Shown: positions 5,841 through 62,329 of the stretch, piece after piece | How positions within the stretch are numbered: the first letter of the stretch is position 1 | Layout: each line of letters starts with the position of its first letter | Assembly: GCF_039543265.1 (NCBI RefSeq) | Contig: NZ_BAABJK010000004.1 | Location: forward strand, 1,030,003 to 1,094,002 | Length of the DNA stretch: 64,000 bases | Source of the DNA: Algibacter aquimarinus | Lineage (GTDB): Bacteria > Bacteroidota > Bacteroidia > Flavobacteriales > Flavobacteriaceae | Direction: 5' to 3' | Position numbers and translations under genes: made by a program | Notes under the pieces: generated by a model | Database searches by the model: none | What the model saw: the letters and a program-made list of their open reading frames with translations, nothing else | Told to the model about the DNA's origin: nothing

Positions 5841-6650
5841 ATGAAAGATAAGAGGATATTATACGTATCATCTGAAGTAGTTCCTTATTTACCAGAAACA
5901 GAAATTTCATCCATGTCCTTTGAAGCACCAAGATTGGTAAATCAACAAGGTGGTCAAATAAGAATCTTCATGCCTAGATACGGGAATATTAATGAACGTA
6001 GACATCAATTACATGAAGTTATAAGGCTTTCTGGTATTAATCTAGTGATTAACGATTTAGACATGCCGTTAATTATTAAAGTAGCTTCAATTCCAAAAGA
6101 AAGAATTCAAGTATATTTTATAGATAACGATGAATATTTTAAAAGAAAAGCGACTTTAACCGATGAAGCTGGTGAGCTGTTTTCTGATAACGATGAACGT
6201 GCTATTTTTTTTGCAAAAGGTGTTATAGAGACAGTTAAGAAGTTAAATTGGTCTCCAGACGTTATACATGTTCATGGCTGGTTAGCATCGTTATTACCTG
6301 TTTACTTAAAAGAATACTATAAAGACGAACCTTTATTTAACGAAAGTAAAATAGTAACCTCTATTTACAATCAAAGTTTTAACAATACGTTAAATAAAGA
6401 TATGATTAATAAGGTTAAATTTGACAATATAAATGATGAAGCTATTAGTAAGCTTGAAGAACCATCATACAATAACCTTATGAAAGTGGCTATAGATTAT
6501 TCAGACGCATTAATTGTAGGCTCTGAAGACATTAAAGATGAACTTAATGATTACATGAAATCATCTGACAAGCCCGTTTTAGAATACAAAAGCAAAGATG
6601 AATTTGGTGAAGCTTATACAGAATTTATTAATTCTACCGTTTTAAGCTAA
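5841..6650 (+). CDS. Short glycogen/starch-synthase-like protein (glycosyltransferase family 5 N-terminal domain only)
   Basis: ILYVSSEVVPYLPET...QGGQIRIFMPRYG resembles the GlgA N-terminus. A ~270-aa stand-alone form is typical of Flavobacteriia, divergent from panC. Confidence 0.5.
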   Translation: MKDKRILYVSSEVVPYLPETEISSMSFEAPRLVNQQGGQIRIFMPRYGNINERRHQLHEVIRLSGINLVINDLDMPLIIKVASIPKERIQVYFIDNDEYFKRKATLTDEAGELFSDNDERAIFFAKGVIETVKKLNWSPDVIHVHGWLASLLPVYLKEYYKDEPLFNESKIVTSIYNQSFNNTLNKDMINKVKFDNINDEAISKLEEPSYNNLMKVAIDYSDALIVGSEDIKDELNDYMKSSDKPVLEYKSKDEFGEAYTEFINSTVLS

Positions 6651-6672
6651 ACTTAGTATTCATTAATTATTT

Positions 6673-8361
6673 ATGAAAAAGACAATTAACGCCCTTAAAT
6701 TTCCTTGCATCTTTTTATTAATGATTATTTCTTTTATTGCTTGCGATAAAGAATTTAGTGAAATAGATAGTGATGTTTTAGGAAAAGATAATTCTAATTT
6801 TGATACTAATAACAACGATTTTCCTATTGTTTCATACAACAAAAAGTTAGATTCACTTCAAATAAATGGACTAGCATCAAATTTACTAGGTGTTTTTAAC
6901 GATCCTGCATATGGAAAAACTACAGCTAGTATAGTTACACAAATTACACCTACTACTTTTGATCCAAGTTTTGGAACTAATGCTGTAATAGATTCTGTTG
7001 TTTTAAGAATACCATATTTTAGCAGAATTGCCAGTATTGAAGGCGAGGTTACAACATATACTATTCAAGATTCTCTATATGGTGAAAATCAAGAAGGGAA
7101 TATTGATCCAATAAAGTTATCTATTTATCAAAATAATTATTTCCTAAGAGATTTCGATCCTTTTAATGTTGGTGATAACAATTTTCAAAATTATTTTTCT
7201 AATGCCGACTTTGCAGTAAACGGCGGTGCCAATAGAGTTCTTAACGGAACAAGTGTGATAGATTTTGAAACTCAAAAAGGGCAGTTAATATATGAAGATA
7301 TTAATTTCGAACCAAGTGCAGAAGCCATAAGACTAGACGAAACTGTTGATGGTACTGTTGTTTCACAATTTATTGCCCCAGCACTAAGAATTAACATGGA
7401 CACTGCATTTTGGACATCAATGATTTTTGATGAATATACTGTAAACCCCACTATACTAAGTAACACAAATAATTTTAGAAATTATTTTAGAGGTCTTTTT
7501 ATAAAAGCAGAAGCTATTAATGATAGTGGAAGTATGGTTTTGTTAAATTTAGCATCTCAAGAATCAAGTATTATTATATATTATTCAAGAGATTCCAGTA
7601 TTGCCGGAGAAAGAACTCAATCAACATATACGTTCAATTTTACTGGCAATAGACTTAACACTTTTGTAAATGAACTTAACTCTGGAATAAATTTAACAAA
7701 TGGAGATAGAGTAAATGGAGATGAAAAGCTTTATTTAAAAGGAGGAAACTCTATGGCAGTTGTTGATTTATTTGGAACAGACGAACTTCAAGATTTTATT
7801 GATGAGTATCGAATTTCTGATGGAAATGGAGGTTATTTAAAAGAAAATGGAACAGGAGATTTCCTTCTCAAAAAACTTATTAATGAAGCCCAACTTATCA
7901 TTTATGAAGATGAAATCATGCAAACATTTCCTGAAGACCAAAACGGAAATGATTACAGCGCTTTTGATAGAATATACGTATACGATGCTACAAACAATGG
8001 CCCTACAATTGATTATTTTTTAGACCCCACAGAAAACACAACGCAATCATTCAATTCTAGAATAATAAGTTTAGGACAGCGTTTTGAAGATGACAATGGA
8101 GGTTTTAAATACAAAATAAGACTTACAGAACATTTAAATAATATTTTACAAAAAGATTCTACTAATACTAGACTAGGCCTGGTACTATCAACCAATGTAA
8201 ATTACAACAATAATGCTGAAATTTTAAATAGTGATGACACGATAGATGGTATACCTGCAGCTTCATTGTTAACTCCAAGAGGAACAATCCTATATGGCTC
8301 AAATACTACAGACCAAAAAAAGATGACTTTAAAAATTTACTCTACAGAACCTCGTAACTAA
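6673..8361 (+). CDS. DUF4270-family lipoprotein
   Basis: Lipoprotein signal (…ISFIACDKEF). Asn/Thr-rich and 562 aa. Its position between the glycogen-synthase-like gene and glmS is conserved in Flavobacteriaceae; assignment from memory. Confidence 0.45.
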   Translation: MKKTINALKFPCIFLLMIISFIACDKEFSEIDSDVLGKDNSNFDTNNNDFPIVSYNKKLDSLQINGLASNLLGVFNDPAYGKTTASIVTQITPTTFDPSFGTNAVIDSVVLRIPYFSRIASIEGEVTTYTIQDSLYGENQEGNIDPIKLSIYQNNYFLRDFDPFNVGDNNFQNYFSNADFAVNGGANRVLNGTSVIDFETQKGQLIYEDINFEPSAEAIRLDETVDGTVVSQFIAPALRINMDTAFWTSMIFDEYTVNPTILSNTNNFRNYFRGLFIKAEAINDSGSMVLLNLASQESSIIIYYSRDSSIAGERTQSTYTFNFTGNRLNTFVNELNSGINLTNGDRVNGDEKLYLKGGNSMAVVDLFGTDELQDFIDEYRISDGNGGYLKENGTGDFLLKKLINEAQLIIYEDEIMQTFPEDQNGNDYSAFDRIYVYDATNNGPTIDYFLDPTENTTQSFNSRIISLGQRFEDDNGGFKYKIRLTEHLNNILQKDSTNTRLGLVLSTNVNYNNNAEILNSDDTIDGIPAASLLTPRGTILYGSNTTDQKKMTLKIYSTEPRN

Positions 8362-51537: not shown

Positions 51538-52455
51538 TCACTTTTTCTTTAACCTATTACTAAAGTGAATAACATAAGTTGCATTGAAACCAAAATTGAG
51601 ATTAGGGTTTCTGAAATTAAAATTATTCCGTGTTTGGGTAATAAAAGTGTCTTCAACCATATTTCTTGTATTAGTAAGCATAAATTGTAAAAGTACATCT
51701 CCAACTTCCCAATTTACGCCCAGTGCAAAAGGCCCATAAGTGTCAAATGACTTAATAGGATTAAAGGTTTTATAGTATTCAGATACAATTGAAAGGTGAG
51801 GCCCTATTTTGTAACGTGCACCAAAGCCCATTGCAAAAAAGTTTTGATCATCTGCTTCGGAAGCTGCAAAACCTCTATGAATAAATGTAGGGGAAATTTG
51901 AAATGAAAAATCTGATGATATTTTTCTAGAAATTAGTAATTGTGTTGTAAACGATAATCTTCCAGAAAAATCATTTACTACCAAAGAATATGGTCTTGAA
52001 CTACTATTATAGCTACCGCTTTGTAAAAGTGTTATGTTGAATGGTGTTGCCTTTTCTCCTTTCTTTTGTGTTACTAAATTATATTTCAGATAACTATCCC
52101 AAAGCCTATCAAAAGTTGTAGCTCCAACCCCAAAAGATAAACGGTCTGAAATGCCATATTCAAGCGCAAATCTTGTACTCATTCTATCTGCACCAAAACT
52201 TTGTGATTGTTCTGAGGGTAAATCCCAAAACCTGTTGGCTACAAATACTTCTAAAATATTTTTACTCCTTACTTCGGTTGAATGTCCAAAAGTAATTCGG
52301 GTCATTTTAAATGCTGGCGTTATGTAACCTAAAGTATCTTTTTGTTCATTCTCTAGTATTTCTAATAAATTTTGGGATATGGAAAAATGAAAACATCCCA
52401 TAAAAATAATACCTGTAAATAATATTTTTTTAATTTTCATAAGGCTCATATTCAA
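51538..52455 (-). CDS. Outer-membrane beta-barrel protein, paralogue A (possibly DUF5777-like). The likely start is Met6 (MKIKKILF…), near 52440.
   Basis: Signal peptide. It shares AFK..I.F..ST.V.SK…RF…FG.D…R..L.YGISD…KKG…F…NTS with the 53901-54746 product. Confidence 0.45.
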   Translation of the reverse strand: MNMSLMKIKKILFTGIIFMGCFHFSISQNLLEILENEQKDTLGYITPAFKMTRITFGHSTEVRSKNILEVFVANRFWDLPSEQSQSFGADRMSTRFALEYGISDRLSFGVGATTFDRLWDSYLKYNLVTQKKGEKATPFNITLLQSGSYNSSSRPYSLVVNDFSGRLSFTTQLLISRKISSDFSFQISPTFIHRGFAASEADDQNFFAMGFGARYKIGPHLSIVSEYYKTFNPIKSFDTYGPFALGVNWEVGDVLLQFMLTNTRNMVEDTFITQTRNNFNFRNPNLNFGFNATYVIHFSNRLKKK

Positions 52456-52981
52456 ATTTAAAGTTTACCTCAATACTTTTAGCAATATTACCAGCCAGTA
52501 ATGGTGGTATATTTATGTTATAATCTTTTACTAAAGTTTCAAAAGTACCAGACAAAATATATTTCCCATCGTTATTTTCAATCTTACTTTTTATTTCCAG
52601 TTCGTTAGAAACACCATGCATAAGAAGGGTCCCTTTAATAATTCGTGTTTGTTCTCCTTTTATACTAGAATCAAATTTTAATATTCTCCCTTCAAAAGTG
52701 GCTTTTGGATAAATATCAGATTCTATATAACTTTCGTTAAAATGCTCTTTCATTAGAGCTTTCTCAAAAACAAACGTGTTCATTAGCATACTTACAGCTA
52801 TACTTCCATCCTCAAGGTTTATTATACTTAATGCTTGATTGTTTTCTGCCTTAATATTTTCGACTGATGTATATGAAAAAAAAGAAACTTTTCCTTGTCT
52901 ACTAATTACTTGCTCTGGTTTTTCGTTAAAACCAAAATTAATAATTAACAACAGAGTTAAAAGAAATTTATTCATTCGCAT
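52430..52981 (-). CDS. YceI-like (lipocalin-type polyisoprenoid-binding) periplasmic protein, paralogue A
   Basis: Signal peptide; EHFNESYIESDIYPKATFEG is nearly identical to EHFNENYIESETYPKATFKG in paralogue B; 183 aa. Confidence 0.55.
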   Translation of the reverse strand: MRMNKFLLTLLLIINFGFNEKPEQVISRQGKVSFFSYTSVENIKAENNQALSIINLEDGSIAVSMLMNTFVFEKALMKEHFNESYIESDIYPKATFEGRILKFDSSIKGEQTRIIKGTLLMHGVSNELEIKSKIENNDGKYILSGTFETLVKDYNINIPPLLAGNIAKSIEVNFKFEYEPYEN

Positions 52982-52984
52982 TGT

Positions 52985-53410
52985 TTAGTTAGTTATTAAG
53001 CAATTTAAAAGAATTACATCTTTTAACGAGCCTTTTAGAATGCCTTTAATTTTAATTACCTGTCCTTGTTTTAAATTTTCCAATAAAAGAGATTGATTTT
53101 CTTGAATGTCGCAAATAGCTAAAACGTCTGTTTGTCCTTTTTCACTTAAAATAATTGTGCTTCTATTATTTAAGTAATTAACATCTTCAACAACGCCCTG
53201 TACCTCAACAACAGTTTCTTTTAAGTTCGAATTATTTAAATTAAGCGCTTCCAATAACTCAGCTAATTTAAACTGTTTAGTTGTAGTTGTTCTCTGTACA
53301 ATTTGGTCTGAGTTATCTTTATAACAGCTACTAAAAATAATTAATGCAGTTAAACACATCAATAAATAACTGATTATAAATTGTGTCCTCTTTTTTATTG
53401 AAAATCGCAT
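52985..53410 (-). CDS. Small OB-fold lipoprotein (tRNA_anti-like / BOF-like), paralogue A
   Basis: Lipobox FSSC; 141 aa. It has the same secondary-structure pattern as the 54748-55152 product. Confidence 0.4.
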   Translation of the reverse strand: MRFSIKKRTQFIISYLLMCLTALIIFSSCYKDNSDQIVQRTTTTKQFKLAELLEALNLNNSNLKETVVEVQGVVEDVNYLNNRSTIILSEKGQTDVLAICDIQENQSLLLENLKQGQVIKIKGILKGSLKDVILLNCLITN

Positions 53411-53626
53411 AAGAGCATAAATTTACTGACTATTTTCTATTCTTTTTTGATTTAAATAAAAAATTAATCCCCAAGATGTTTTATTTTCCTGGGGAATAAG
53501 ATAATTAACAAACCAAAAACTAATCCCTTAACAAATTATTGATATAATTAACCTCCTTTAAAAACTTTCTTCTTAAGAGAAATAAACTTCCTAACCTTAG
53601 CAATCTAGATTAGCAATAAATCTTTT

Positions 53627-53899
53627 TTAGCAACCGCAAACCGAATTAGAAAATTGAGCTTCTAATAATCGTTCTCCCTTTTCTGGATACCCAATTTTTG
53701 ATAATCTATTTAATACTTCCGAAAGCTTATTGGCTTTCATAAAATTAAATGTTATTAATGATTCTTTTGGGTAGAGTCTCACATTCTTAACATCATCTAT
53801 TTCTTGTAATTCTTCCTTAATACACACTGAACAATTTTTGCAAAATCGTTGTTGTACTTCTATTCTAGCCATGGAGGCAATACATCTTTCTTCTATCAT
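53627..53899 (-). CDS. Heavy-metal-associated (HMA)-like small protein with CxxCxxC and a C-terminal CGC. The track ORF 53627-53947 is probably over-extended.
   Basis: RFCKNCSVCIKEELQEIDDVKNVRLYPKESLITFNF…IGYP fits the HMA fold (MTCxxCV…GV..v.v.l…v…Gy). A start at Met17 lies 1 nt after the upstream barrel gene's stop. The tail is SVCGC. Confidence 0.45.
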   Translation of the reverse strand: MIEERCIASMARIEVQQRFCKNCSVCIKEELQEIDDVKNVRLYPKESLITFNFMKANKLSEVLNRLSKIGYPEKGERLLEAQFSNSVCGC

Positions 53900-53900
53900 A

Positions 53901-54746
53901 TTAAAAAACTCTTGATAAATTAAACCCAAAGAAGATATCTCCATCACCCCAATCTCCTGTTCCTTGGCCTAAAAAGCCATTAGTATTCATAGGTTGTGCG
54001 TTAGTAAAGTGTAGTTGAAATACATGACCTCCCGTTTCTAAATCAAAACCAATAGAAAGAGGGTTGTTAAACGGTGAGGTTTCAGCTCTATTTAAATGCA
54101 GTCCGTAATCAAAGTTTACCGACCACCTTTTAGTCAGTTTATGTCGTCCTCCAAAACCAATAACGTATTGAGAGTTATCTTGTTCATCAACATCTACATA
54201 ATTATCATGAAAAAACGTAGGCATTAATTGAAAAGAAAAGTTAGTATTAACCTTTTTTGATATTAGCAATTGTGTTGTATAACCTAACCTATTTTTAAAT
54301 TTTAAAAGCGGTAATATTTCTTCATCTAGTGAGGTATTAATTAATATATTACTTGAACTTACTACTGTAAAAGGAAAGCCTCCTTTTTTTTCGCGTAATA
54401 ATCTCATTTTAAGTGAAGATTCATAAATTTTTCGGAATGAGCTTCTGGAAAATCCAATATTAATTCCGTCTGAAATACCATAAATAAGGTTAAGTCTGGT
54501 AACGGCTTGATCTAGGCCAAAGAAATCTTTAAATCCGGTTTCTACAGATCCAAATCTGTGAGATACCACAAAATAAAGCTCCTTTTTTGATACCATTTTT
54601 GTAGATTCAAAATTGACAATCTTCAGACCTTTAAAAGCAGCTGTTTTAAAATCTGTTTCTGTTTCATTATCTATTTCAGATAATAAATCGTCTTGGGCAA
54701 AAAATATCGTTGGTATTAAAAAAATTAATAAGTATAAAAATTTCAT
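53901..54746 (-). CDS. Outer-membrane beta-barrel protein, paralogue B (possibly DUF5777-like)
   Basis: Signal peptide MKFLYLLIFLIPTIFFAQ and a C-terminal …LSRVF (terminal Phe). Paralogous to the 51538-52455 product. Confidence 0.45.
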   Translation of the reverse strand: MKFLYLLIFLIPTIFFAQDDLLSEIDNETETDFKTAAFKGLKIVNFESTKMVSKKELYFVVSHRFGSVETGFKDFFGLDQAVTRLNLIYGISDGINIGFSRSSFRKIYESSLKMRLLREKKGGFPFTVVSSSNILINTSLDEEILPLLKFKNRLGYTTQLLISKKVNTNFSFQLMPTFFHDNYVDVDEQDNSQYVIGFGGRHKLTKRWSVNFDYGLHLNRAETSPFNNPLSIGFDLETGGHVFQLHFTNAQPMNTNGFLGQGTGDWGDGDIFFGFNLSRVF

Positions 54747-54747
54747 T

Positions 54748-55152
54748 TTAGTTCTGTTTGTTTATTACTGTTGCTTGGTCAATTTTAACTACTTCAAGTA
54801 GTTCATCGTAGCCCACACATCTACCTTTAATAGTTAATAAAATTTGTTCTGCTACTTTTGGCATTTTATCAATATTAAAACTTACTTGTATTTTATCATT
54901 TAAAATGATTTCATTGTTTTCAACTGAAGTTATTTTTCCTTCAATCTCAATTACTTTATCTAAATACTTGGTTGTAGCAAGCTTCTCATTGTTATAAAAA
55001 TGATTGTATAAATTTTCTGCAGACATAGAGACGGTGGCTTCTTCAACACTAATATTTCTATGCTTAGTGTTAAAGGTGTAATTATAAACTAAGCCACCTA
55101 CAACAAAAACAAGAATGATTAGAGTAAGAATTATGATTTTATTTCTCTTCAT
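54748..55152 (-). CDS. Small OB-fold (tRNA_anti-like) membrane-anchored protein, paralogue B
   Basis: N-terminal TM anchor; …NLYNHFYNNEKLATTKYLDKVIEIEGKITSV… is typical of tRNA_anti-like OB proteins; 134 aa. Confidence 0.45.
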   Translation of the reverse strand: MKRNKIIILTLIILVFVVGGLVYNYTFNTKHRNISVEEATVSMSAENLYNHFYNNEKLATTKYLDKVIEIEGKITSVENNEIILNDKIQVSFNIDKMPKVAEQILLTIKGRCVGYDELLEVVKIDQATVINKQN

Positions 55153-55712
55153 TTTTTGGTGAGTTTAAAATCTAAGGTCACTACTATCTCTTTTGCTATT
55201 TTATTTTTTACAATACTTGGTATTTCTATATCAAAATCAGCAGGAGTCACAGTAAATGACCCCTGGATGATTATAGAATCATTGGATTTTTTTGTATTTA
55301 ACGTTGTTCGAATTTGTTTTTCTTTTCCACGCAATTCTATTTTCCCATCAACGATAACCTCTGTGATGTTTTCCGTTAAATCCGAAAAATTAAAATCCAA
55401 TAATTTACCTTTAAACGTAGCTTTTGGATACGTTTCTGATTCTATATAATTTTCATTAAAATGCTCTTCCATAAGAGAATTTTTAAAACGAAAACTCTTA
55501 ATAAGTGCCAGTGAAGCAATGTCATTAGTTTCTGTATTTAATATTACAGTTACTGATGCGTTTGTAGCTTTAACAGGTTCAAAAAGTTCTTCAGAGGCTT
55601 CAAATGTTAGGTTCCCCTTTTTATCAATATACTTTGTTTGTGCTCCTAACGTATTTACTATAAATGTTGTGATAATGAGAAGCAGTGCTAAAAGACTTTT
55701 TGTGTTTTTCAT
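55149..55712 (-). CDS. YceI-like periplasmic protein, paralogue B
   Basis: Signal peptide; 187 aa; paralogous to the 52430-52981 product. A 4-nt overlap with the downstream OB gene suggests coupling. Confidence 0.55.
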   Translation of the reverse strand: MKNTKSLLALLLIITTFIVNTLGAQTKYIDKKGNLTFEASEELFEPVKATNASVTVILNTETNDIASLALIKSFRFKNSLMEEHFNENYIESETYPKATFKGKLLDFNFSDLTENITEVIVDGKIELRGKEKQIRTTLNTKKSNDSIIIQGSFTVTPADFDIEIPSIVKNKIAKEIVVTLDFKLTKK

Positions 55713-55762
55713 GATTACAGTTGTTTGATTCTTTATTATTCTTAGTTTTAGTTAATCAAAAG

Positions 55763-56146
55763 CTAGTTCTGTAATTTTCCGTCAGTTATCCACTGTTGTA
55801 TTAGATCTATAGTTGCTTGTGGCAATCTTCCAGATGGAGGCATTGCTCCAGGTGAGCCACTTTGTAAACTCATTCTGTTTAAAACACCGTTAGCTCTTTG
55901 GTTTACTTGACTAAAATTTATCAAAGAAAAAGGCGCACCATTTACAGGTGGACTTGCATGACAACTAACGCAACTGCTCTGCATTATTGGAGCAATATCA
56001 TCACTATAAGTAATTTTATTATCGTTAGGATTGTTAGGATTCTCTATAACATCAGGTTCATCTATTAAATCGTTTTCGCTATCGTTGCTACAACTACATA
56101 ATAAAAGTGCTAATAATGCCGAAGTAATTAATCTGTTTGCTTTCAT
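55763..56146 (-). CDS. Lipoprotein with a single c-type cytochrome (CxxCH) domain, PSCyt1-like
   Basis: SSCVSCHASPPVNGAPFSLINF…MPPSGRLPQATIDLIQQWI contains the heme motif CVSCH. The probable start is MKANRLITSALLALLLCSC; the track ORF runs on to 56221. Confidence 0.55.
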   Translation of the reverse strand: MKANRLITSALLALLLCSCSNDSENDLIDEPDVIENPNNPNDNKITYSDDIAPIMQSSCVSCHASPPVNGAPFSLINFSQVNQRANGVLNRMSLQSGSPGAMPPSGRLPQATIDLIQQWITDGKLQN

Positions 56147-56362
56147 TTTGTTTCTGTTTTTTTGGGTTTTAGTGCCAAATCTGTTGCACAAATTTTTAGG
56201 TTTATTTTCAATACAAAGCAACTGTATTTAAAGGGGTTACAGACTACAAAACTTAGTGAGAGGGAAGAATTAATCTTAAAAAGGGAAAATTTAGTCTTGA
56301 AACGTATTAACAAAATGCTTAATTTATTTCAATTTAAATAGCCCTACTTAAATTATTTATAT

Positions 56363-57496
56363 TTGCAAGTATTAATAAAAAATATGCGTAAAGACAGACT
56401 TTATTTGTTAACCTTTTTATCGCTCTCGATAATTTTTCTAGTTATCTCTAGTGTAGCCATACGTTATTTTGTTAATGCCGCAGCGGATGAGGTTCTTGAA
56501 ACTCAACTGGAGTTTAGTAAACGTGAGGCAAGGCAAATTGCGTTATTAATTGGTAATCAATTAGAGGATGGCGTTTCAATGGAAAAAGCTAAGTCAAGTA
56601 CTCAACAAAGCATTGAAAATTCAAATTTAGATGCTGGATTTGTGAGTGTTTTTGATTGGTCTGGTAAAATTATATGTCACCCTGATATTAAACAACTTGG
56701 ACAAAACATAAGTTCTAGAAAATCTTTTGTAACCTCTGTTTCAGATGACCTTACTTCTGAGGATTTCTACAATTTGCTCAAAAAAAATGAAGAGATTAAT
56801 GATACACTTGCTTTAAGCGATACAAAATCAAAGTCTGAAGTAGTATATCTTTACCCAGTTAAAAATTCAGATTGGATAGTTGGTGCGCATGCCAACACAC
56901 AAATAGTTTCTCAGCAAATTAACACCCTAAGGAAGAATTTTCAGAATATTTTATTGGTTATGGGGATTTTATTCATTCTTTCCTCAGTGTTAATAGTAAG
57001 ATTGATTGGTAGCAGGTATGAGAAAAATTTAGAAATTAAAAATGAAAAGCTTTCAGATGAAATTATTAACCTCTCTAAATTAAATAGAGCCGTTGACACC
57101 TACCAACAAAAAGTCATTGATAAGCCACTAAACAATATAAGTGATGAGGAAAGTATGGCAAAAAAGAGAATTCTAACCTATATAAGACATGAACTTTTAT
57201 CTGTATCTACTGATGATATTGCTTACATTTATACCGAAAGCACAATTACCTATGTGGTTTGTTTTGATGGCAAACGGTCTACCTCAAACTCAAGTTTAGA
57301 TGAGTTATTTGCTAACTTAGATAATACTTACTTTTTTAGAGCAAATCGTCAGTTTATAATTGCCATATCTGCTATTGATAAGATAGTTAGGTATGGAAAT
57401 AATCAACTTAAAATACTTATTAATCCAAACTCTGAAGTCGACATAATAATAAGTAAAAATAAGGCCTCTGAATTTAAAAAGTGGTTGAATCTATAA
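56363..57496 (+). CDS. Membrane-anchored one-component regulator: TM, extracytoplasmic sensor-like domain, TM, coiled coil, then a C-terminal LytTR DNA-binding domain
   Basis: The C-terminus (ILTYIRHELLSVSTDDIAYIYTESTITYVVCFDGKRSTSN…YFFRANRQFIIAISAI) is a LytTR domain. Two hydrophobic helices fall near residues 12-33 and 195-215. Confidence 0.7.
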   Translation: MQVLIKNMRKDRLYLLTFLSLSIIFLVISSVAIRYFVNAAADEVLETQLEFSKREARQIALLIGNQLEDGVSMEKAKSSTQQSIENSNLDAGFVSVFDWSGKIICHPDIKQLGQNISSRKSFVTSVSDDLTSEDFYNLLKKNEEINDTLALSDTKSKSEVVYLYPVKNSDWIVGAHANTQIVSQQINTLRKNFQNILLVMGILFILSSVLIVRLIGSRYEKNLEIKNEKLSDEIINLSKLNRAVDTYQQKVIDKPLNNISDEESMAKKRILTYIRHELLSVSTDDIAYIYTESTITYVVCFDGKRSTSNSSLDELFANLDNTYFFRANRQFIIAISAIDKIVRYGNNQLKILINPNSEVDIIISKNKASEFKKWLNL

Positions 57497-57580: not shown

Positions 57581-57581
57581 G

Positions 57582-57655
57582 CTCCTTCTCTTGGGCTCGA
57601 ACCAAGGACCCTCTGATTAACAGTCAGATGCTCTAACCAACTGAGCTAAGAAGGA
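57582..57655 (-). tRNA. tRNA-Asn (anticodon GTT)
   Basis: Reverse complement: TCCTTCT-TA-GCTC-AGTTGGTTA-GAGC-A-TCTGA-CTGTTAA-TCAGA-GGGTC-CTTGG-TTCGAGC-CCAAG-AGAAGGA-G. Cloverleaf with a perfect 7-bp acceptor stem, anticodon loop CU-GUU-AA, T-loop TTCGAGC. CCA is not encoded. Confidence 0.85.
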
Positions 57656-57724: not shown

Positions 57725-59119
57725 TTATTTAGAATTTAATAACTCCGTTATCCATTTATAAACATCATTCCCGTTTGCGAATAAAACTAAAGCGATTAAG
57801 ATAAAGAAACCAACCATTTGCGCATATTCCATAAACTTGTCTCCTGGTTTTCTTCCAGACACCATTTCATATAATAAAAACATAACGTGTCCACCATCTA
57901 ATGCAGGAATTGGTAACAGGTTTAAAACCCCTAACATAATTGATAAAAAGGCTGTTATATTCCAAAAATATTGCCAACTCCAAACACTAGGAAAAATATC
58001 ATAAATAGCTTTAAAACCACCAACACCTTTGTATGCACCTGTACTTGGTGTAAAAATAGCGCCTAATTGCTTCCAATATGAAGCTAGTTTTGCTTTTGCT
58101 TTATTTATTCCTACAGGAAAAGCTTCAAGAAAGGTATATTCTTTTGTTTCAAATTTATAGTAACCCAAAGCTTCTAAAGTTTTGGGAGTAGAACCAGAAG
58201 CATAAACCAAACCTAATTTGCCCTCATCACTAATTTTTAAAGGAATAGTTGTTTCAACCTTGTCTCTTAATAATTTAGCCGTAACTTCTTGACCTTTTAG
58301 GTTTCCTAAAACTGCCTTTACTTCATCAGCATATTTAGTACTAACGTTATTTAAACCAATAATAATATCTCCTGTTTTTATTCCACTATTTTTATTGTAA
58401 GATGAGTCAGGAACTTCTACTATAATAAAAGGTTCTCTTAAATCTATAAAGTCTTTTTCTTTAGAATCTATAAGCTGAGATAAAATATCTTCTGGAAAAG
58501 TAATTGTTGATTGTTCTCCCTTTCTTTCAATGGTAATATCTTTTCCAAACAAAACCTTTTCTGATATTTCCGAGAAATTCTCAATCTTATCTCCATCAAC
58601 AGCAATAATTTTATCGCCAGTTAAAAGCCCCGCTTGATTAGCAACGGTATTTTCGATTAATAGACCGTCTTTAATATTATCATTTGGCAAAAATGTATCG
58701 CCATAAAAATAACTCATCCCTATGTAAATAAGAATGGCTAGAATAAAATTAACAGTAACACCACCCAACATAATAATTAAACGCTGCCATGCTGGTTTAG
58801 ATCGAAATTCCCATGGTTTAGGCTCTTCTTTCATAGCCTCAGTATCCATACTCTCGTCAATCATTCCAGAAATTTTCACGTAACCCCCTAGTGGCAACCA
58901 TCCAATACCATAAACCGTATCTCCTATTTTCTTTTTAAACAATGAAAATTTTACATCAAAAAACAAGTAAAATTTTTCAACTCTAGTTTTAAAAGCTTTT
59001 GCTGGAATGAAATGCCCTAATTCGTGCAGCACAATAAGCAATGATAAGCTTAATAAAAACTGAGATATTTTTATAACAAACTCCATAGAATCTTCAATCA
59101 ATTTTTTATAATCGCACAA
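57725..59119 (-). CDS. rseP: Site-2 (RIP) zinc metalloprotease RseP with PDZ domains
   Basis: HELGHF (HExxH) in TM1, two PDZ segments and a C-terminal LDGG motif; 464 aa. Confidence 0.88.
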   Translation of the reverse strand: MCDYKKLIEDSMEFVIKISQFLLSLSLLIVLHELGHFIPAKAFKTRVEKFYLFFDVKFSLFKKKIGDTVYGIGWLPLGGYVKISGMIDESMDTEAMKEEPKPWEFRSKPAWQRLIIMLGGVTVNFILAILIYIGMSYFYGDTFLPNDNIKDGLLIENTVANQAGLLTGDKIIAVDGDKIENFSEISEKVLFGKDITIERKGEQSTITFPEDILSQLIDSKEKDFIDLREPFIIVEVPDSSYNKNSGIKTGDIIIGLNNVSTKYADEVKAVLGNLKGQEVTAKLLRDKVETTIPLKISDEGKLGLVYASGSTPKTLEALGYYKFETKEYTFLEAFPVGINKAKAKLASYWKQLGAIFTPSTGAYKGVGGFKAIYDIFPSVWSWQYFWNITAFLSIMLGVLNLLPIPALDGGHVMFLLYEMVSGRKPGDKFMEYAQMVGFFILIALVLFANGNDVYKWITELLNSK

Positions 59120-59256: not shown

Positions 59257-59931
59257 ATGCTGTCATTTTTTAAGGAATACAAGAAGTTTGCTGTGGTTTT
59301 TGGTATCATATCAATCATTATAGTTGTTATAATTTATAATACTTTAAACACCTATAAACCATTAGATATTTATGCCCCAGCTCGAGTAAGTACAGAGTTG
59401 GTTGATAGTACAATTCAATACAAAAAGAAATATCATAAAATTGCCAATTTTGCCCTTACAAACCAAAATGGAAAAACCATTACCCAAAACGATTACAAGG
59501 ATAAAATTTATGTTGCCGATTTCTTTTTTACAACCTGCCAAACCATTTGCCCGATTATGACAAAAAACATGGTAGACATACAAAAAGAAATTTTAAATGA
59601 TGATGATGTTATGCTACTCTCACATTCTGTAACTCCTGAAATAGACACTGTTGCCCAACTAAAACGTTATGCTAAAAAAAAAGGTGTTAACGATAAAAAA
59701 TGGAATTTGGTTACTGGCGATAAAAAACAAATTTACCAACTAGCCAGAAAGAGTTATTTGGCTGTTAAAGACAACCCAAACGCAGGACCATTTGATATGG
59801 TACATACAGAAAACTTTATGCTTATTGACAAAAAAAGACAGATTAGAGGGTTTTACGATGGTACTAATAAAGAAGATATCGAGAAGCTTTTAAAAGACAT
59901 TAAACATCTAAAAAAAGAATACGACCAATAG
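59257..59931 (+). CDS. SCO1/SenC-family thioredoxin-fold copper chaperone
   Basis: N-terminal TM anchor and a CxxxC motif (FFFTTCQTICP) followed by a conserved His region; 224 aa. Confidence 0.75.
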   Translation: MLSFFKEYKKFAVVFGIISIIIVVIIYNTLNTYKPLDIYAPARVSTELVDSTIQYKKKYHKIANFALTNQNGKTITQNDYKDKIYVADFFFTTCQTICPIMTKNMVDIQKEILNDDDVMLLSHSVTPEIDTVAQLKRYAKKKGVNDKKWNLVTGDKKQIYQLARKSYLAVKDNPNAGPFDMVHTENFMLIDKKRQIRGFYDGTNKEDIEKLLKDIKHLKKEYDQ

Positions 59932-60003: not shown

Positions 60004-60237
60004 TTGCAAGACACTTTAGCACATTTAAAACGAGGCGAAACAGCTACTATTATTGATGTTTCATCAATTCACATTCCTTTAAAATTACTAGAAATGGGTT
60101 GCCTACCCGGGAATTCTGTTAAACTTGTGCAATTGGCTCCTTTTCAAGATCCCATGTATTTAAATATTAATGGATCGCATTTAGCTATTAGAAAAGAAAC
60201 GGCTTCTCATATTTTAATTAAAAAGAATAATGAGTAA
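60004..60237 (+). CDS. feoA: Ferrous iron transport protein A
   Basis: 77-aa SH3-like FeoA (LKRGETATIIDV…GCLPGNSVKLV) overlapping the feoB start. Confidence 0.85.
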   Translation: MQDTLAHLKRGETATIIDVSSIHIPLKLLEMGCLPGNSVKLVQLAPFQDPMYLNINGSHLAIRKETASHILIKKNNE

Positions 60238-62329
60238 GCAAATTAATGTCGCTTTAATAGGAAACCCCAATACAGGCAAAACTTCAGTGTTTAATGCTTT
60301 AACAGGATTAAACCAAAAAGTTGGAAATTATCCAGGAATTACGGTTGAAAAAAAGGAAGGAGTTTGCAAACTTCCGCGTGGGATTAAAGCACATATTATT
60401 GATTTACCTGGAACTTACAGTTTGAATGCTTCATCACTTGATGAAAATGTAGTTATTGAGCTTTTGCTAAATAAAAATGATAAAGATTTCCCAGATATTG
60501 CTGTAGTTGTAACAGATGTTGAAAATCTAAAACGTAACCTTTTACTATTTACACAAATTAAAGATTTAGAAATACCCACGGTTTTGGTTATAAACATGTC
60601 AGACCGCATGAGTTACAAAGGTATTTCTTTAGATATTGATTATTTAGAAGAAAAGCTACACACCAAAATTGCGCTTATTAGTACTAGAAAAAATGAAGGA
60701 ATTGACAACCTTAAAAGTTTAATTACAAATTACAAAGAGGTTTCTGTTAACCCTTGTATTGATTCTACAACTATAGACCCAGCGTATTTTGGAAACTTAA
60801 AAAAAGCATTCCCTAATCAGCTTTTGTATAAGCTCTGGTTAGTTATTACACAAGATGTAAATTTTGGAAAAACAGATAGAAAAGAAATTGATGCCGTTGC
60901 CGATTTTAAAACTAAAAGTAAAGCAGATTTAAAACGCTTGCAACAAAAAGAAACAATAAAACGATATCAATACATAAACAACGTTCTAAAAAAAGGACAA
61001 ACTATTGATGTTACACAAGCAAAAGATTTACGCTCTAAACTTGATCGAATATTAACACACAAAGTTTGGGGGTATGTTATTTTTGGACTCATTTTACTTA
61101 CTATTTTTCAAGCTATTTATGATTGGTCTAGTTTACCAATGGATTTTATAGATGGTGTTTTTGCATCTCTAAGCGAATGGGTGAAAGATATTTTACCAAG
61201 TGGAGCTTTTACTAGTTTAATAGCAGAAGGTATAATTCCTGGGCTTGGGGGCATTGTTATTTTTATACCACAAATTGCCTTTTTGTTCCTATTTATTGCG
61301 ATACTTGAAGAAAGTGGTTATATGAGTCGTGTAGTATTTTTAATGGACCGAATTATGCGGCGTTTCGGACTTAGTGGAAAAAGTGTTGTTCCATTAATTT
61401 CTGGAACCGCCTGTGCTATTCCTGCAATTATGGCAACTCGAAACATTGAAAGTTGGAAAGAACGCTTAATCACTATTTTAGTAACGCCCTTTACAACATG
61501 TTCTGCTAGACTGCCTGTTTATCTCATTATAATTGCTTTAGTAATACCTGAAGGACGTTTTTTTGGCTTAGGATATCAAGCTCTTACATTAATGCTTTTG
61601 TATCTTATAGGCTTTGCAACAGCTGTATTTTCTGCTTATATTTTAAATAGAATACTAAAAATAAAAAGCAAAACTTTTTTTGTTGTAGAAATGCCAAATT
61701 ACAAATTACCACTTTTTAAAAACGTAGTTTTAACGGTTATTGAAAAAACAAAATCATTCGTTTTTGGTGCTGGTAAAATAATTTTAGCCATTTCTATTAT
61801 ATTATGGTTTTTAGCATCTTACGGCCCTGGAGAAAAATTTAATAATGCTGAAAATATTGTTAAATCAGATGTTGCTTCTCAGAATTTAAGTGATGAAGAA
61901 TTACAACAAAAAATAGCATCTCATAAATTAGAGCATTCATTCATAGGTATTGCTGGTCATGCTATTGAACCTGTAATAAGACCTCTAGGTTACGATTGGA
62001 AAATTGGTATTGCCATAGTAAGTAGTTTTGCCGCTCGCGAAGTTTTCGTAGGAACCCTAGCTACAATTTACAGTGTTGGAAACGATGATGAAGACACCAT
62101 AAAAAACCGAATGGCAGGCGAAGTGAATCCTATTTTAGGCGGTCCATTATTTACTTTTGCTTCCGGGATTTCATTATTACTATTTTATGCCTTTGCCATG
62201 CAATGCATGAGTACTTTAGCCATTGTAAAACGTGAAACTAATAGTTGGAAGTGGCCAATTTTACAATTGGTGATTATGACAGCAATTGCTTATATTACAG
62301 CTTTAATAGCCTTTCAATTTTTAAAGTAA
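60230..62329 (+). CDS. feoB: Ferrous iron transporter B (G-protein domain plus a polytopic permease)
   Basis: G1 GNPNTGKTSVFNALTG, G3 DLPGTYS, and a large C-terminal membrane domain; 699 aa. Confidence 0.95.
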   Translation: MSKQINVALIGNPNTGKTSVFNALTGLNQKVGNYPGITVEKKEGVCKLPRGIKAHIIDLPGTYSLNASSLDENVVIELLLNKNDKDFPDIAVVVTDVENLKRNLLLFTQIKDLEIPTVLVINMSDRMSYKGISLDIDYLEEKLHTKIALISTRKNEGIDNLKSLITNYKEVSVNPCIDSTTIDPAYFGNLKKAFPNQLLYKLWLVITQDVNFGKTDRKEIDAVADFKTKSKADLKRLQQKETIKRYQYINNVLKKGQTIDVTQAKDLRSKLDRILTHKVWGYVIFGLILLTIFQAIYDWSSLPMDFIDGVFASLSEWVKDILPSGAFTSLIAEGIIPGLGGIVIFIPQIAFLFLFIAILEESGYMSRVVFLMDRIMRRFGLSGKSVVPLISGTACAIPAIMATRNIESWKERLITILVTPFTTCSARLPVYLIIIALVIPEGRFFGLGYQALTLMLLYLIGFATAVFSAYILNRILKIKSKTFFVVEMPNYKLPLFKNVVLTVIEKTKSFVFGAGKIILAISIILWFLASYGPGEKFNNAENIVKSDVASQNLSDEELQQKIASHKLEHSFIGIAGHAIEPVIRPLGYDWKIGIAIVSSFAAREVFVGTLATIYSVGNDDEDTIKNRMAGEVNPILGGPLFTFASGISLLLFYAFAMQCMSTLAIVKRETNSWKWPILQLVIMTAIAYITALIAFQFLK

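Follow-up and report, generated by a model that had tools for sequence, protein, structure and literature searches.

A duplicated DUF5777 barrel, YceI and cytochrome c locus in Algibacter aquimarinus: a candidate envelope electron-transfer module of the Bacteroidota

The window analyzed here is a 64,000-nucleotide (64-kb) stretch of Algibacter aquimarinus DNA (RefSeq assembly GCF_039543265.1, contig NZ_BAABJK010000004.1, positions 1,030,003 to 1,094,002 of the forward strand). A preliminary description of its sequence had singled out eight minus-strand genes in two related cassettes, A and B, that encode outer-membrane barrels, YceI-like proteins and OB-fold proteins, together with a cytochrome c lipoprotein and an HMA-like protein in cassette B. 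From sequence comparison across related genomes, we propose that this locus is a clade-specific, duplicated version of an envelope or outer-membrane electron-transfer module found throughout the Bacteroidota. We give this reading a probability of about one half.

Gene content, probable electron carrier and conservation

All eight open reading frames (ORFs) are present, consecutive and tightly packed on the minus strand from 56146 to 51538. Cassette B is led by the gene for a monohaem c-type cytochrome lipoprotein (55763..56146, 127 aa). Behind it lie YceI_B, a lipocalin-like protein with a signal peptide and a Pfam YceI domain (55149..55712, 187 aa); OB_B, a tRNA_anti-like OB-fold protein with an uncleaved N-terminal membrane anchor (54748..55152, 134 aa); barrel_B, a DUF5777 outer-membrane protein with a 12-stranded beta-barrel (53901..54746, 281 aa); and a small HMA-like protein with an FCxxC motif and a C-terminal CxC (53627..53899, 90 aa from the ATG at 53899). 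After 216 nt (53411-53626), cassette A encodes OB_A, a tRNA_anti-like lipoprotein with the lipobox FSSC (52985..53410, 141 aa); YceI_A, of the YceI family (52430..52981, 183 aa); and barrel_A, a DUF5777 outer-membrane barrel (51538..52440, 300 aa from the ATG at 52440).

The spacing is as tight as had been described, with a 50-nt spacer between the cytochrome stop (55763) and the YceI_B start (55712) and otherwise gaps of 1–4 nt or overlaps. YceI_B and OB_B overlap by 4 nt, and 1 nt separates OB_B from barrel_B. The same distance separates barrel_B from the HMA-like gene, given the start at ATG 53899 that its orthologues use. In cassette A, OB_A and YceI_A are 3 nt apart, and YceI_A and barrel_A overlap by 11 nt with the start at 52440; the overlap is identical in the orthologous loci L084 and L085. 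Intergenic distances this short suggest translational coupling.

The family assignments made earlier were borne out. Both barrels match Pfam DUF5777 (PF19089) over their full length (298.3 and 257.1 bits, cut-off 23.1; E-values 1.8e-76 for barrel_A and 4.7e-89). YceI_A and YceI_B match Pfam YceI (47.2 and 44.9 bits, cut-off 23.7; E-values for the pair 3.9e-12 and 1.9e-11), and OB_A and OB_B match tRNA_anti-like (PF12869; 55.1 and 46.1 bits, cut-off 23.5; E-values for the pair 8.2e-15 and 4.9e-12). The cytochrome (Cytochrome_CBB3, 20.9 bits, E = 4.5e-4, under the 27-bit cut-off) and the HMA-like protein (HMA, PF00403, 21.0 bits, E = 4.3e-4, under the 24.8-bit cut-off) score below the Pfam thresholds, so both were tested with family profiles, which supported the assignments. 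PDB searches found no close solved relative with the single sequence of YceI_B and nothing useful with the OB profile. The peptide strings quoted in the preliminary description occur in the translations. Its claim that every cassette A protein has a clear paralogue in cassette B holds for the barrels (31% identity, E = 2e-39) and the YceI proteins (34% identity, E = 3e-27 by BLAST). For the OB pair, which BLAST does not detect (E = 6), it holds at the profile level only (hhalign probability 98.8%, E = 7e-17, 13% identity).

The window cytochrome has the lipobox LLLCSC and an acidic tether of about 30 residues (C-SNDSENDLIDE…), followed by CVSCH and an axial-methionine motif, AMPP. Throughout its family (n = 41), CxxCH, the lipobox cysteine and one tryptophan never vary, and at least 90% of members carry Met-Pro. 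CxxCH was found in 77 of 79 cytochrome homologues, the remaining two having CxxxCH, and there is one CxxCH per cytochrome. When the family profile was searched against the PDB, 57 of the 60 listed matches were c-type cytochromes or cytochrome c subunits (best E = 1.2e-4). The protein combines CxxCH with a distal methionine ligand and Sec export, the features of a class I c-type cytochrome.

The tether is itself conserved. Among 63 distinct sequences, S or T stands at position +5 in 49, D or E at +8 in 55, and L, I or V at +9 in 47. Acidic residues (about 2.9) far outnumber basic ones (0.3), and the lipidated cysteine lies a median of 32 residues from CxxCH (n = 63). Lipoprotein export signals in Bacteroidetes are acidic and occupy positions +2 to +6 after the lipidated cysteine (SDDFE, SDDDD or QKDDE; PMC5080379). 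At these positions the window cytochrome reads S-N-D-S-E, agreeing with SDDFE at three of five; the family logo is most acidic at +7/+8.

The strongest indication of what the carrier does comes from locus L027, in the metagenome-assembled genome of a marine member of the Flavobacteriaceae. There the order carrier-YceI-OB-barrel is preserved, and the carrier is a 123-aa lipoprotein of the plastocyanin/azurin family (6610-6981, plus strand; PF00127, 40.6 bits, cut-off 21.2) with the ligand set His…Cys-Ser-Pro-His-x3-Met (Cys-x2-His-x3-Met). Its tether and that of the window cytochrome are alike (CENDSTSDL and CSNDSENDL). Cytochrome c6 and plastocyanin are the classic case of such an exchange between a c-type cytochrome and a cupredoxin, which marks a soluble one-electron carrier. 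A cupredoxin in the cytochrome slot thus indicates that the predicted job of this slot is electron transfer, not haem or metal trafficking.

For comparison, we retrieved 80 genome loci surrounding barrel homologues and assigned their ORFs with iterative hidden Markov model (HMM) searches. The barrel homologues themselves number at least 7,659 in a word-index search and form 1,685 clusters at 50% identity in an exhaustive search; barrel_B is 100% identical to an Algibacter aquimarinus protein among them. Neighbors, defined as genes within five genes of the barrel, were counted in those 68 loci where three or more genes were available on either side. YceI and the cytochrome each occur near the barrel in 65 of these (the cytochrome in 64 before the rescue of L055) and the OB gene in 43. 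A DOMON protein with a type IX secretion system (T9SS) tail is found in 38, a periplasmic ankyrin in 32, a Crp-like regulator in 24 and an extracytoplasmic function (ECF) sigma factor in 18; the HMA-like gene and the LytTR regulator occur in six each. Linkage of cytochrome, YceI and barrel spans at least five lineages (among them Flavobacteriaceae, Flavobacterium, Chryseobacterium, Chitinophagales, Cytophagales and Roseivirga). The order is cytochrome-YceI-OB-barrel in marine Flavobacteriaceae and OB-barrel-cytochrome-YceI in Flavobacterium; in other loci YceI and the cytochrome are divergent from OB-barrel. Synteny holds over more than 80 loci from several Bacteroidota families, and the genes form a conserved system, not a chance neighborhood.

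Two loci, L050 and L061, keep the cytochrome and barrel without YceI or OB. Immediately ahead of the cytochrome gene, loci of Chitinophagales, Aquimarina, Roseivirga and Maribacter encode two conserved lipoproteins with no Pfam match, of about 128 aa and about 380 aa (L039 4979-6532, L046 4872-6442, L050 6076-7616, L061 6400-7569 and L065 5108-6670); in L050 and L061 they accompany the cytochrome and barrel. Elsewhere, in Chryseobacterium, Flavobacterium and others, the core is repeatedly accompanied by a signal-peptide ankyrin-repeat protein and by a DOMON protein that ends in a T9SS sorting domain (for example L020 6642-7927 and L054 9739-11050, with about 30 further loci). The Flavobacterium module lies behind genes for an ECF sigma factor, FecR and a TonB-dependent receptor (TBDR), all on the same strand; the Flavobacterium johnsoniae locus, L041, reads ECF-FecR-TBDR-Lipoprotein_15-OB-barrel-cytochrome-YceI. 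The preliminary description had suggested an envelope redox, lipid-quinone or metal-handling system; the redox part gains strong support, by comparison, from the L027 cupredoxin and the DOMON and ankyrin neighbors, while the lipid-quinone and metal parts stay conjectural.

Orthologues of cassette A are confined to marine Flavobacteriaceae and always lie beside a B cassette, and their barrel evolves faster (47–67% identity to the window, against 71–88% for barrel B). The preliminary description had treated the cytochrome as an addition to a base module. With B widespread and A both clade-specific and faster-evolving, that framing is inverted: judged by its distribution, the cytochrome-bearing cassette B is the ancestral, phylum-wide unit, which one marine clade has supplemented with cassette A, the HMA-like gene and the LytTR regulator.

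In most relatives that carry cassette A, its first gene, which is missing from the window, encodes a lipoprotein with a Lipoprotein_15 or LTD domain. Complete marine proteins with Lipoprotein_15 (PF03640) have a C-terminal domain of about 110 aa with an invariant GHPF…CEFHxxM, a type-1-copper-like ligand set. Such lead genes are located at L001 9265-10494, L007 7713-8960, L010 9282-10484, L011 9188-10366, L014 6668-7942, L083 9330-10541 and L084 5909-7876. No ankyrin, DOMON, Lipoprotein_15 or u380 homologue was found within the 64-kb window.

The HMA-like protein had been counted as a component of the envelope module. It has no signal peptide, and its gene is confined to the marine clade, always directly after barrel B; on both grounds it falls outside the envelope core. 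A profile of 12 orthologues matches the HMA domains of CopA in the PDB (E = 6.6e-7), as well as CopZ, MerP and CCS, with the CxxC aligned. All 12 share the FCxxC, which falls in the canonical metal-binding loop, and the C-terminal CxC. It shares with CopZ, Atx1 and MerP the beta-alpha-beta-beta-alpha-beta profile and a CxxC in the metal-binding loop, but its motif is FCxxC rather than GMxCxxC and it is encoded inside an envelope-protein operon. The C-terminal CxC resembles CCS domain III. The protein is a cytoplasmic, clade-specific accessory, probably a metallochaperone.

The outer-membrane barrel and the proposed function

That these genes encode outer-membrane barrels, as first described, is supported by a confident AlphaFold2 model of 12 strands (pLDDT 93.3, from 142 diverse sequences). 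They have both the beta-barrel fold and the signal peptide of DUF5777 proteins, as well as the invariant motifs of that family, HRFG and ETGGHVFQ; barrel_B has a conserved helix (residues 68-80) between strands 1 and 2. The model's best fold matches are KdgM (score 18.3), FapF (18.1), NanC (17.2), the COG4313 channel (16.9) and autotransporter barrels (15–16.7), with PcoB at 10.6, all at a sequence identity of just 7–13%. KdgM/NanC, FapF, COG4313 and autotransporter beta-domains are neighbors in fold and not family members. They are channels whose lumen holds a solute or a polypeptide segment.

Conserved residues on the inferred lumen side are mostly charged (R64, R84, K113, K165, R201, K203, D109, D213, D235 and E237). 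Barrel_B is also the most conserved protein of the locus, at 71–88% identity across genera compared with 46–56% for the cytochrome and 33–52% for the OB proteins. Being the best conserved in its operon is unusual for an outer-membrane protein and suggests constrained contacts. One homologue (P0260; L086 959-2329) fuses the DUF5777 barrel to an N-terminal CxxCH and a Reeler domain, and two cytochrome genes of the window-cytochrome family lie directly upstream; no YceI gene is present on this 3.9-kb contig. Reeler and DOMON domains occur in eukaryotic ferric reductases.

We infer the ligand, the direction of electron flow, the protein contacts and the physiological role of the module as follows. 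A lipid-anchored one-electron carrier, the monohaem cytochrome c on its acidic tether, would work at the dedicated 12-stranded DUF5777 barrel. By analogy, the YceI lipocalin may hold an isoprenoid quinone or another hydrophobic redox-active lipid and ferry menaquinol, or a peroxidized or hydrophobic lipid, between the membranes, and the cytochrome would swap single electrons with this cargo. The barrel and the membrane-anchored OB protein would form an outer-membrane station that docks or threads the acidic tether of the carrier, or presents the cargo at the outer leaflet or the cell surface. In this way reducing power would reach the outer membrane or surface and, in other lineages, a T9SS-exported DOMON protein, and could serve to quench radicals, reduce an external substrate or handle metals. 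Cassette A is here a carrier-less OB-YceI-barrel paralogue. The most far-reaching version, a Bacteroidota-wide electron route through the outer membrane, constructed unlike those known, in which the tether of a haem c or, in some genomes, blue-copper carrier docks in or threads the barrel, menaquinol on YceI feeds it and surface DOMON proteins, metals, oxidative enzymes or radicals receive the electrons, is in our view doubtful.

Related arrangements are known. BcnA, a lipocalin of the YceI family, and LcoA, a cytochrome b561, guard the cell against lipid peroxyl radicals, and cytochrome re-reduction of lipocalin-bound quinone has been proposed (PMC9113575). As in this Burkholderia pair and in E. 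coli yceI-yceJ/cybB, a secreted or periplasmic YceI protein is genetically linked to a cytochrome here. The present cytochrome is, however, a c-type monohaem lipoprotein rather than an integral-membrane dihaem b561, the module adds an outer-membrane barrel and an OB-fold protein, and the cytochrome is linked more tightly to the barrel than to YceI. No cytochrome b561 gene was found in the window locus or in 80+ related loci. Cellvibrio japonicus Cbp2D carries a YceI-like ubiquinone-binding domain and c-type cytochrome domains (PMC8981238). Cbp2D and Cbp2E are large secreted multidomain proteins with carbohydrate-binding modules, whereas the proteins here are separate and small, come with a barrel and have no carbohydrate-binding module; PDB searches gave no sequence match to the solved X183 domains. 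By analogy, the module resembles the YceI-cytochrome b561 pair and Cbp2D in logic, with a new architecture, and is a member of neither.

Porin-cytochrome conduits that cross the outer membrane offer another comparison. In MtrCAB and the Geobacter Pcc systems, multihaem cytochromes are inserted in large barrels (26 strands in MtrB). The present module likewise has a c-type cytochrome encoded beside, and obligatorily linked with, an outer-membrane barrel. With one haem and 12 strands, in place of several haems and at least about 20 strands, it is not an Mtr-type porin-cytochrome. The locus had also been put forward as a candidate for an undescribed system, and we found no characterized operon or paper that matches it: our literature search returned no publication on DUF5777, none pairing YceI-like with tRNA_anti-like proteins and none describing the module.

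Several observations weigh against an electron-transfer module of this kind. The AlphaFold2 model of the cytochrome is poor (pLDDT 67) and Foldseek found no structural matches for it in the PDB, so that the assignment rests on sequence motifs and the profile search. The cupredoxin replacement is known from the single metagenome-assembled genome of L027, and the copper domain of Lipoprotein_15, which gave sub-threshold azurin and auracyanin matches in Pfam and PDB profile searches, is a motif-level lead. Cassette A of the window lacks a carrier gene. Chryseobacterium-type loci have no OB gene (25 of the 68 are without one) and a few loci have no YceI, so a four-part machine is not obligatory. 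Control varies from lineage to lineage (LytTR, ECF/FecR plus a TonB-dependent receptor, Crp-like or AraC) and offers no common inducing signal from which to infer function. The lumen-facing residues of the barrel were assigned by strand parity, not from coordinates. Finally, a 12-stranded barrel is too narrow for a folded cytochrome, which makes a trans-membrane electron path speculative.

Of the other explanations, copper or iron acquisition or homeostasis survives best, though we consider it unlikely. The barrel would then be a channel for metal or a metallophore, the cytochrome a cupric or ferric reductase, YceI and OB periplasmic carriers, and the HMA-like protein the cytoplasmic chaperone to which the metal is passed. 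The invariant CxxC and CxC of the HMA-like protein and the translational coupling of its gene to barrel B fit such a system, but the gene is found in only 6 of 68 loci and its product is cytoplasmic. Similarly, SCO1/SenC and FeoB are encoded 3–4 kb away in the window but are not conserved neighbors elsewhere. A metal system would account for the ECF sigma factor, FecR and TonB-dependent receptor ahead of the Flavobacterium module, for the Reeler domain fused to one barrel and for the DOMON proteins at many loci. It would also fit the copper protein in the carrier position of L027, and possibly the Lipoprotein_15 proteins, except that a haem-to-copper swap is typical of electron carriers and not of metal cargo proteins. 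No Met- or His-rich tracts are visible in the window translations, in which no systematic search for them was made.

Next comes transport or capture of hydrophobic compounds without redox chemistry, which we think improbable. YceI would take a lipid, isoprenoid, antibiotic or toxin, the barrel would provide passage, OB would be an adaptor and the cytochrome a co-regulated passenger. Cassette A, which has no cytochrome gene at all, is in line with this explanation, and the barrel is like the COG4313 channel and, more distantly, FadL and TodX, all of them channels for hydrophobic substrates. Against this likeness, the inferred lumen is charged or polar rather than hydrophobic. YceI lipocalins bind polyisoprenoids or quinones and can scavenge antibiotics (PMC9113575; PMC8981238). 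Against a passenger role, the cytochrome is linked to the barrel as tightly as YceI is, stays where YceI is absent (L050, L061 and L086) and is substituted by a cupredoxin in L027.

Lipoprotein display is less probable again. Here the barrel would thread or hand over the acidic tether of the lead lipoprotein (cytochrome, cupredoxin or a Lipoprotein_15/LTD protein), and the main job of the locus would be to place a redox protein on the outside. Conservation of the tether motif does not depend on which redox domain follows it, and conserved basic residues on the inferred lumen side could pair with it. The tethers (C-S-N-D-S-E in the window, C-S-S-D-D in Lipoprotein_15 proteins) resemble the export signals SDDFE and SDDDD (PMC5080379), but that signal is position-dependent, and the best-conserved acidic positions, +7/+8, lie further from the cysteine than the defined signal. 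Cassette A of the window, moreover, has no lead lipoprotein except the OB protein. Display overlaps the electron-transfer module proposed here rather than excluding it. That the genes are unrelated neighbors or mis-called ORFs is effectively refuted by strong Pfam matches, 1–4 nt spacing or overlaps and synteny over more than 80 loci, even though sigma-70 promoter and terminator scans showed no enrichment over shuffles.

Regulation and surroundings of the locus

Divergent from the cytochrome gene lies a gene for a Cache-like/LytTR one-component regulator (56363..57496, plus strand). From its N terminus the protein comprises a transmembrane segment, a Cache-like sensor, another transmembrane segment and, at the C terminus, the LytTR domain, with no receiver domain; Pfam detects LytTR over its cut-off (62 bits, E = 6.5e-17) and dCache_2 weakly (E = 6e-6). 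An orthologue stands divergent beside the cytochrome gene in every marine-clade locus with the HMA-like gene and cassette A.

LytTR regulators of the AgrA/AlgR type bind paired direct repeats. In the window, the direct repeat TTCCCTTTTTAAG-N8-TTCCCTCTCAC (conserved form TTCCCTnTnAAG; 56261..56287, minus strand), with a 21-bp period and a TTTTGT box after it, sits 140 nt 5' of the cytochrome start codon and is the sole such pair in the 64 kb on either strand. The repeat is found 5' of the cytochrome gene in 11 of 12 LytTR-type loci, with matching sites in L001, L007, L008, L010, L011, L013, L014, L083, L084 and L085 and a degenerate triple copy in L005. Only 8 of 2000 shuffled intergenic regions (0.4%) contain such a repeat pair. 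This putative operator is likely the LytTR binding site. It recalls the AgrA/AlgR type in combining a LytTR domain with direct repeats about two helical turns apart upstream of a promoter; the difference is that the present regulator has no receiver or partner kinase and instead fuses a membrane-embedded Cache-like sensor to LytTR in a single component.

In L008, L010, L083 and L084 the repeat recurs ahead of the cassette A lead gene (regex match), as it does in degenerate form in L001. At cassette A of the window it is absent, and the gap 53411-53626 holds only a degenerate half-site, TTTCTCTTAAG. With neither a lipoprotein lead gene nor a second operator in the window, the divergent Cache-LytTR regulator probably activates cassette B, and cassette A here looks like a separate unit with its own promoter. 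Within the gap, a hairpin followed by a U-run (53464..53499, minus strand) probably ends the cassette B transcript as an intrinsic terminator; RNA folding gives -14.6 kcal/mol (z = -2.4) for 53499-53464. Equivalent terminator-like hairpins occur in L005 and L085, which, like the window, have no Lipoprotein_15 gene. The box TAAATTTA / element GTCAGTAAATTTRT lies about 10 nt before the OB_A start codon and is also present in L005. Sigma-70 promoter and terminator scans, which were not built for Bacteroidota promoters, gave 22 sites against 30 expected. An Rfam search of the leader and gap for riboswitches or small RNAs matched only a tRNA-Asn outside the locus.

Two transcriptional responses of YceI genes in other species were considered. 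In Zobellia galactanivorans, the YceI-family genes ZGAL_4453 and ZGAL_4455 change by log2 fold changes of up to ~5.6 in growth on or attachment to brown algae (bioRxiv 10.1101/2021.11.29.470388). These two strongly regulated genes lie one gene apart, against 4–5 here, a spacing that points to a different YceI locus, and they were not used as counterparts of the present one. A Riemerella YceI gene is weakly induced by iron limitation (log2 fold change 1.16); no link from it to the present locus was found.

Genes for an ArsC/Spx-like protein and DinB flank the locus and are not conserved neighbors in other genomes. The tRNA-Asn (GTT) gene (57581-57655, minus strand) lies between those for the LytTR regulator and an RseP-like protease. 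The RseP-type site-2 protease (57725-59119), a SCO1/SenC copper chaperone (59257-59931) and FeoB (60230-62329) are all encoded less than 6 kb from the locus; none of the three is a conserved neighbor in the related loci examined.

Implications for Bacteroidota

Redox couples of YceI proteins and cytochromes in the envelope are known; what is new here is a c-type or copper lipoprotein carrier together with a dedicated outer-membrane barrel. The module becomes surprising only if the trans-outer-membrane reading holds. With its haem-to-copper swap and its clade-specific duplication, it is a compact system in which to follow the evolution of such modules.

In ocean, soil and gut, Bacteroidota are the dominant degraders of polymers, and we are aware of no dedicated path by which electrons or antioxidants get to their outer membrane or surface. 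If the locus does encode an outer-membrane redox station, DUF5777 would gain a function, and the YceI-cytochrome principle would be extended to a third class of cytochrome and to the outer membrane. Surface chemistry such as metal reduction, the control of reactive oxygen species or oxidative polysaccharide cleavage would also have a source of reducing power open to experiment.

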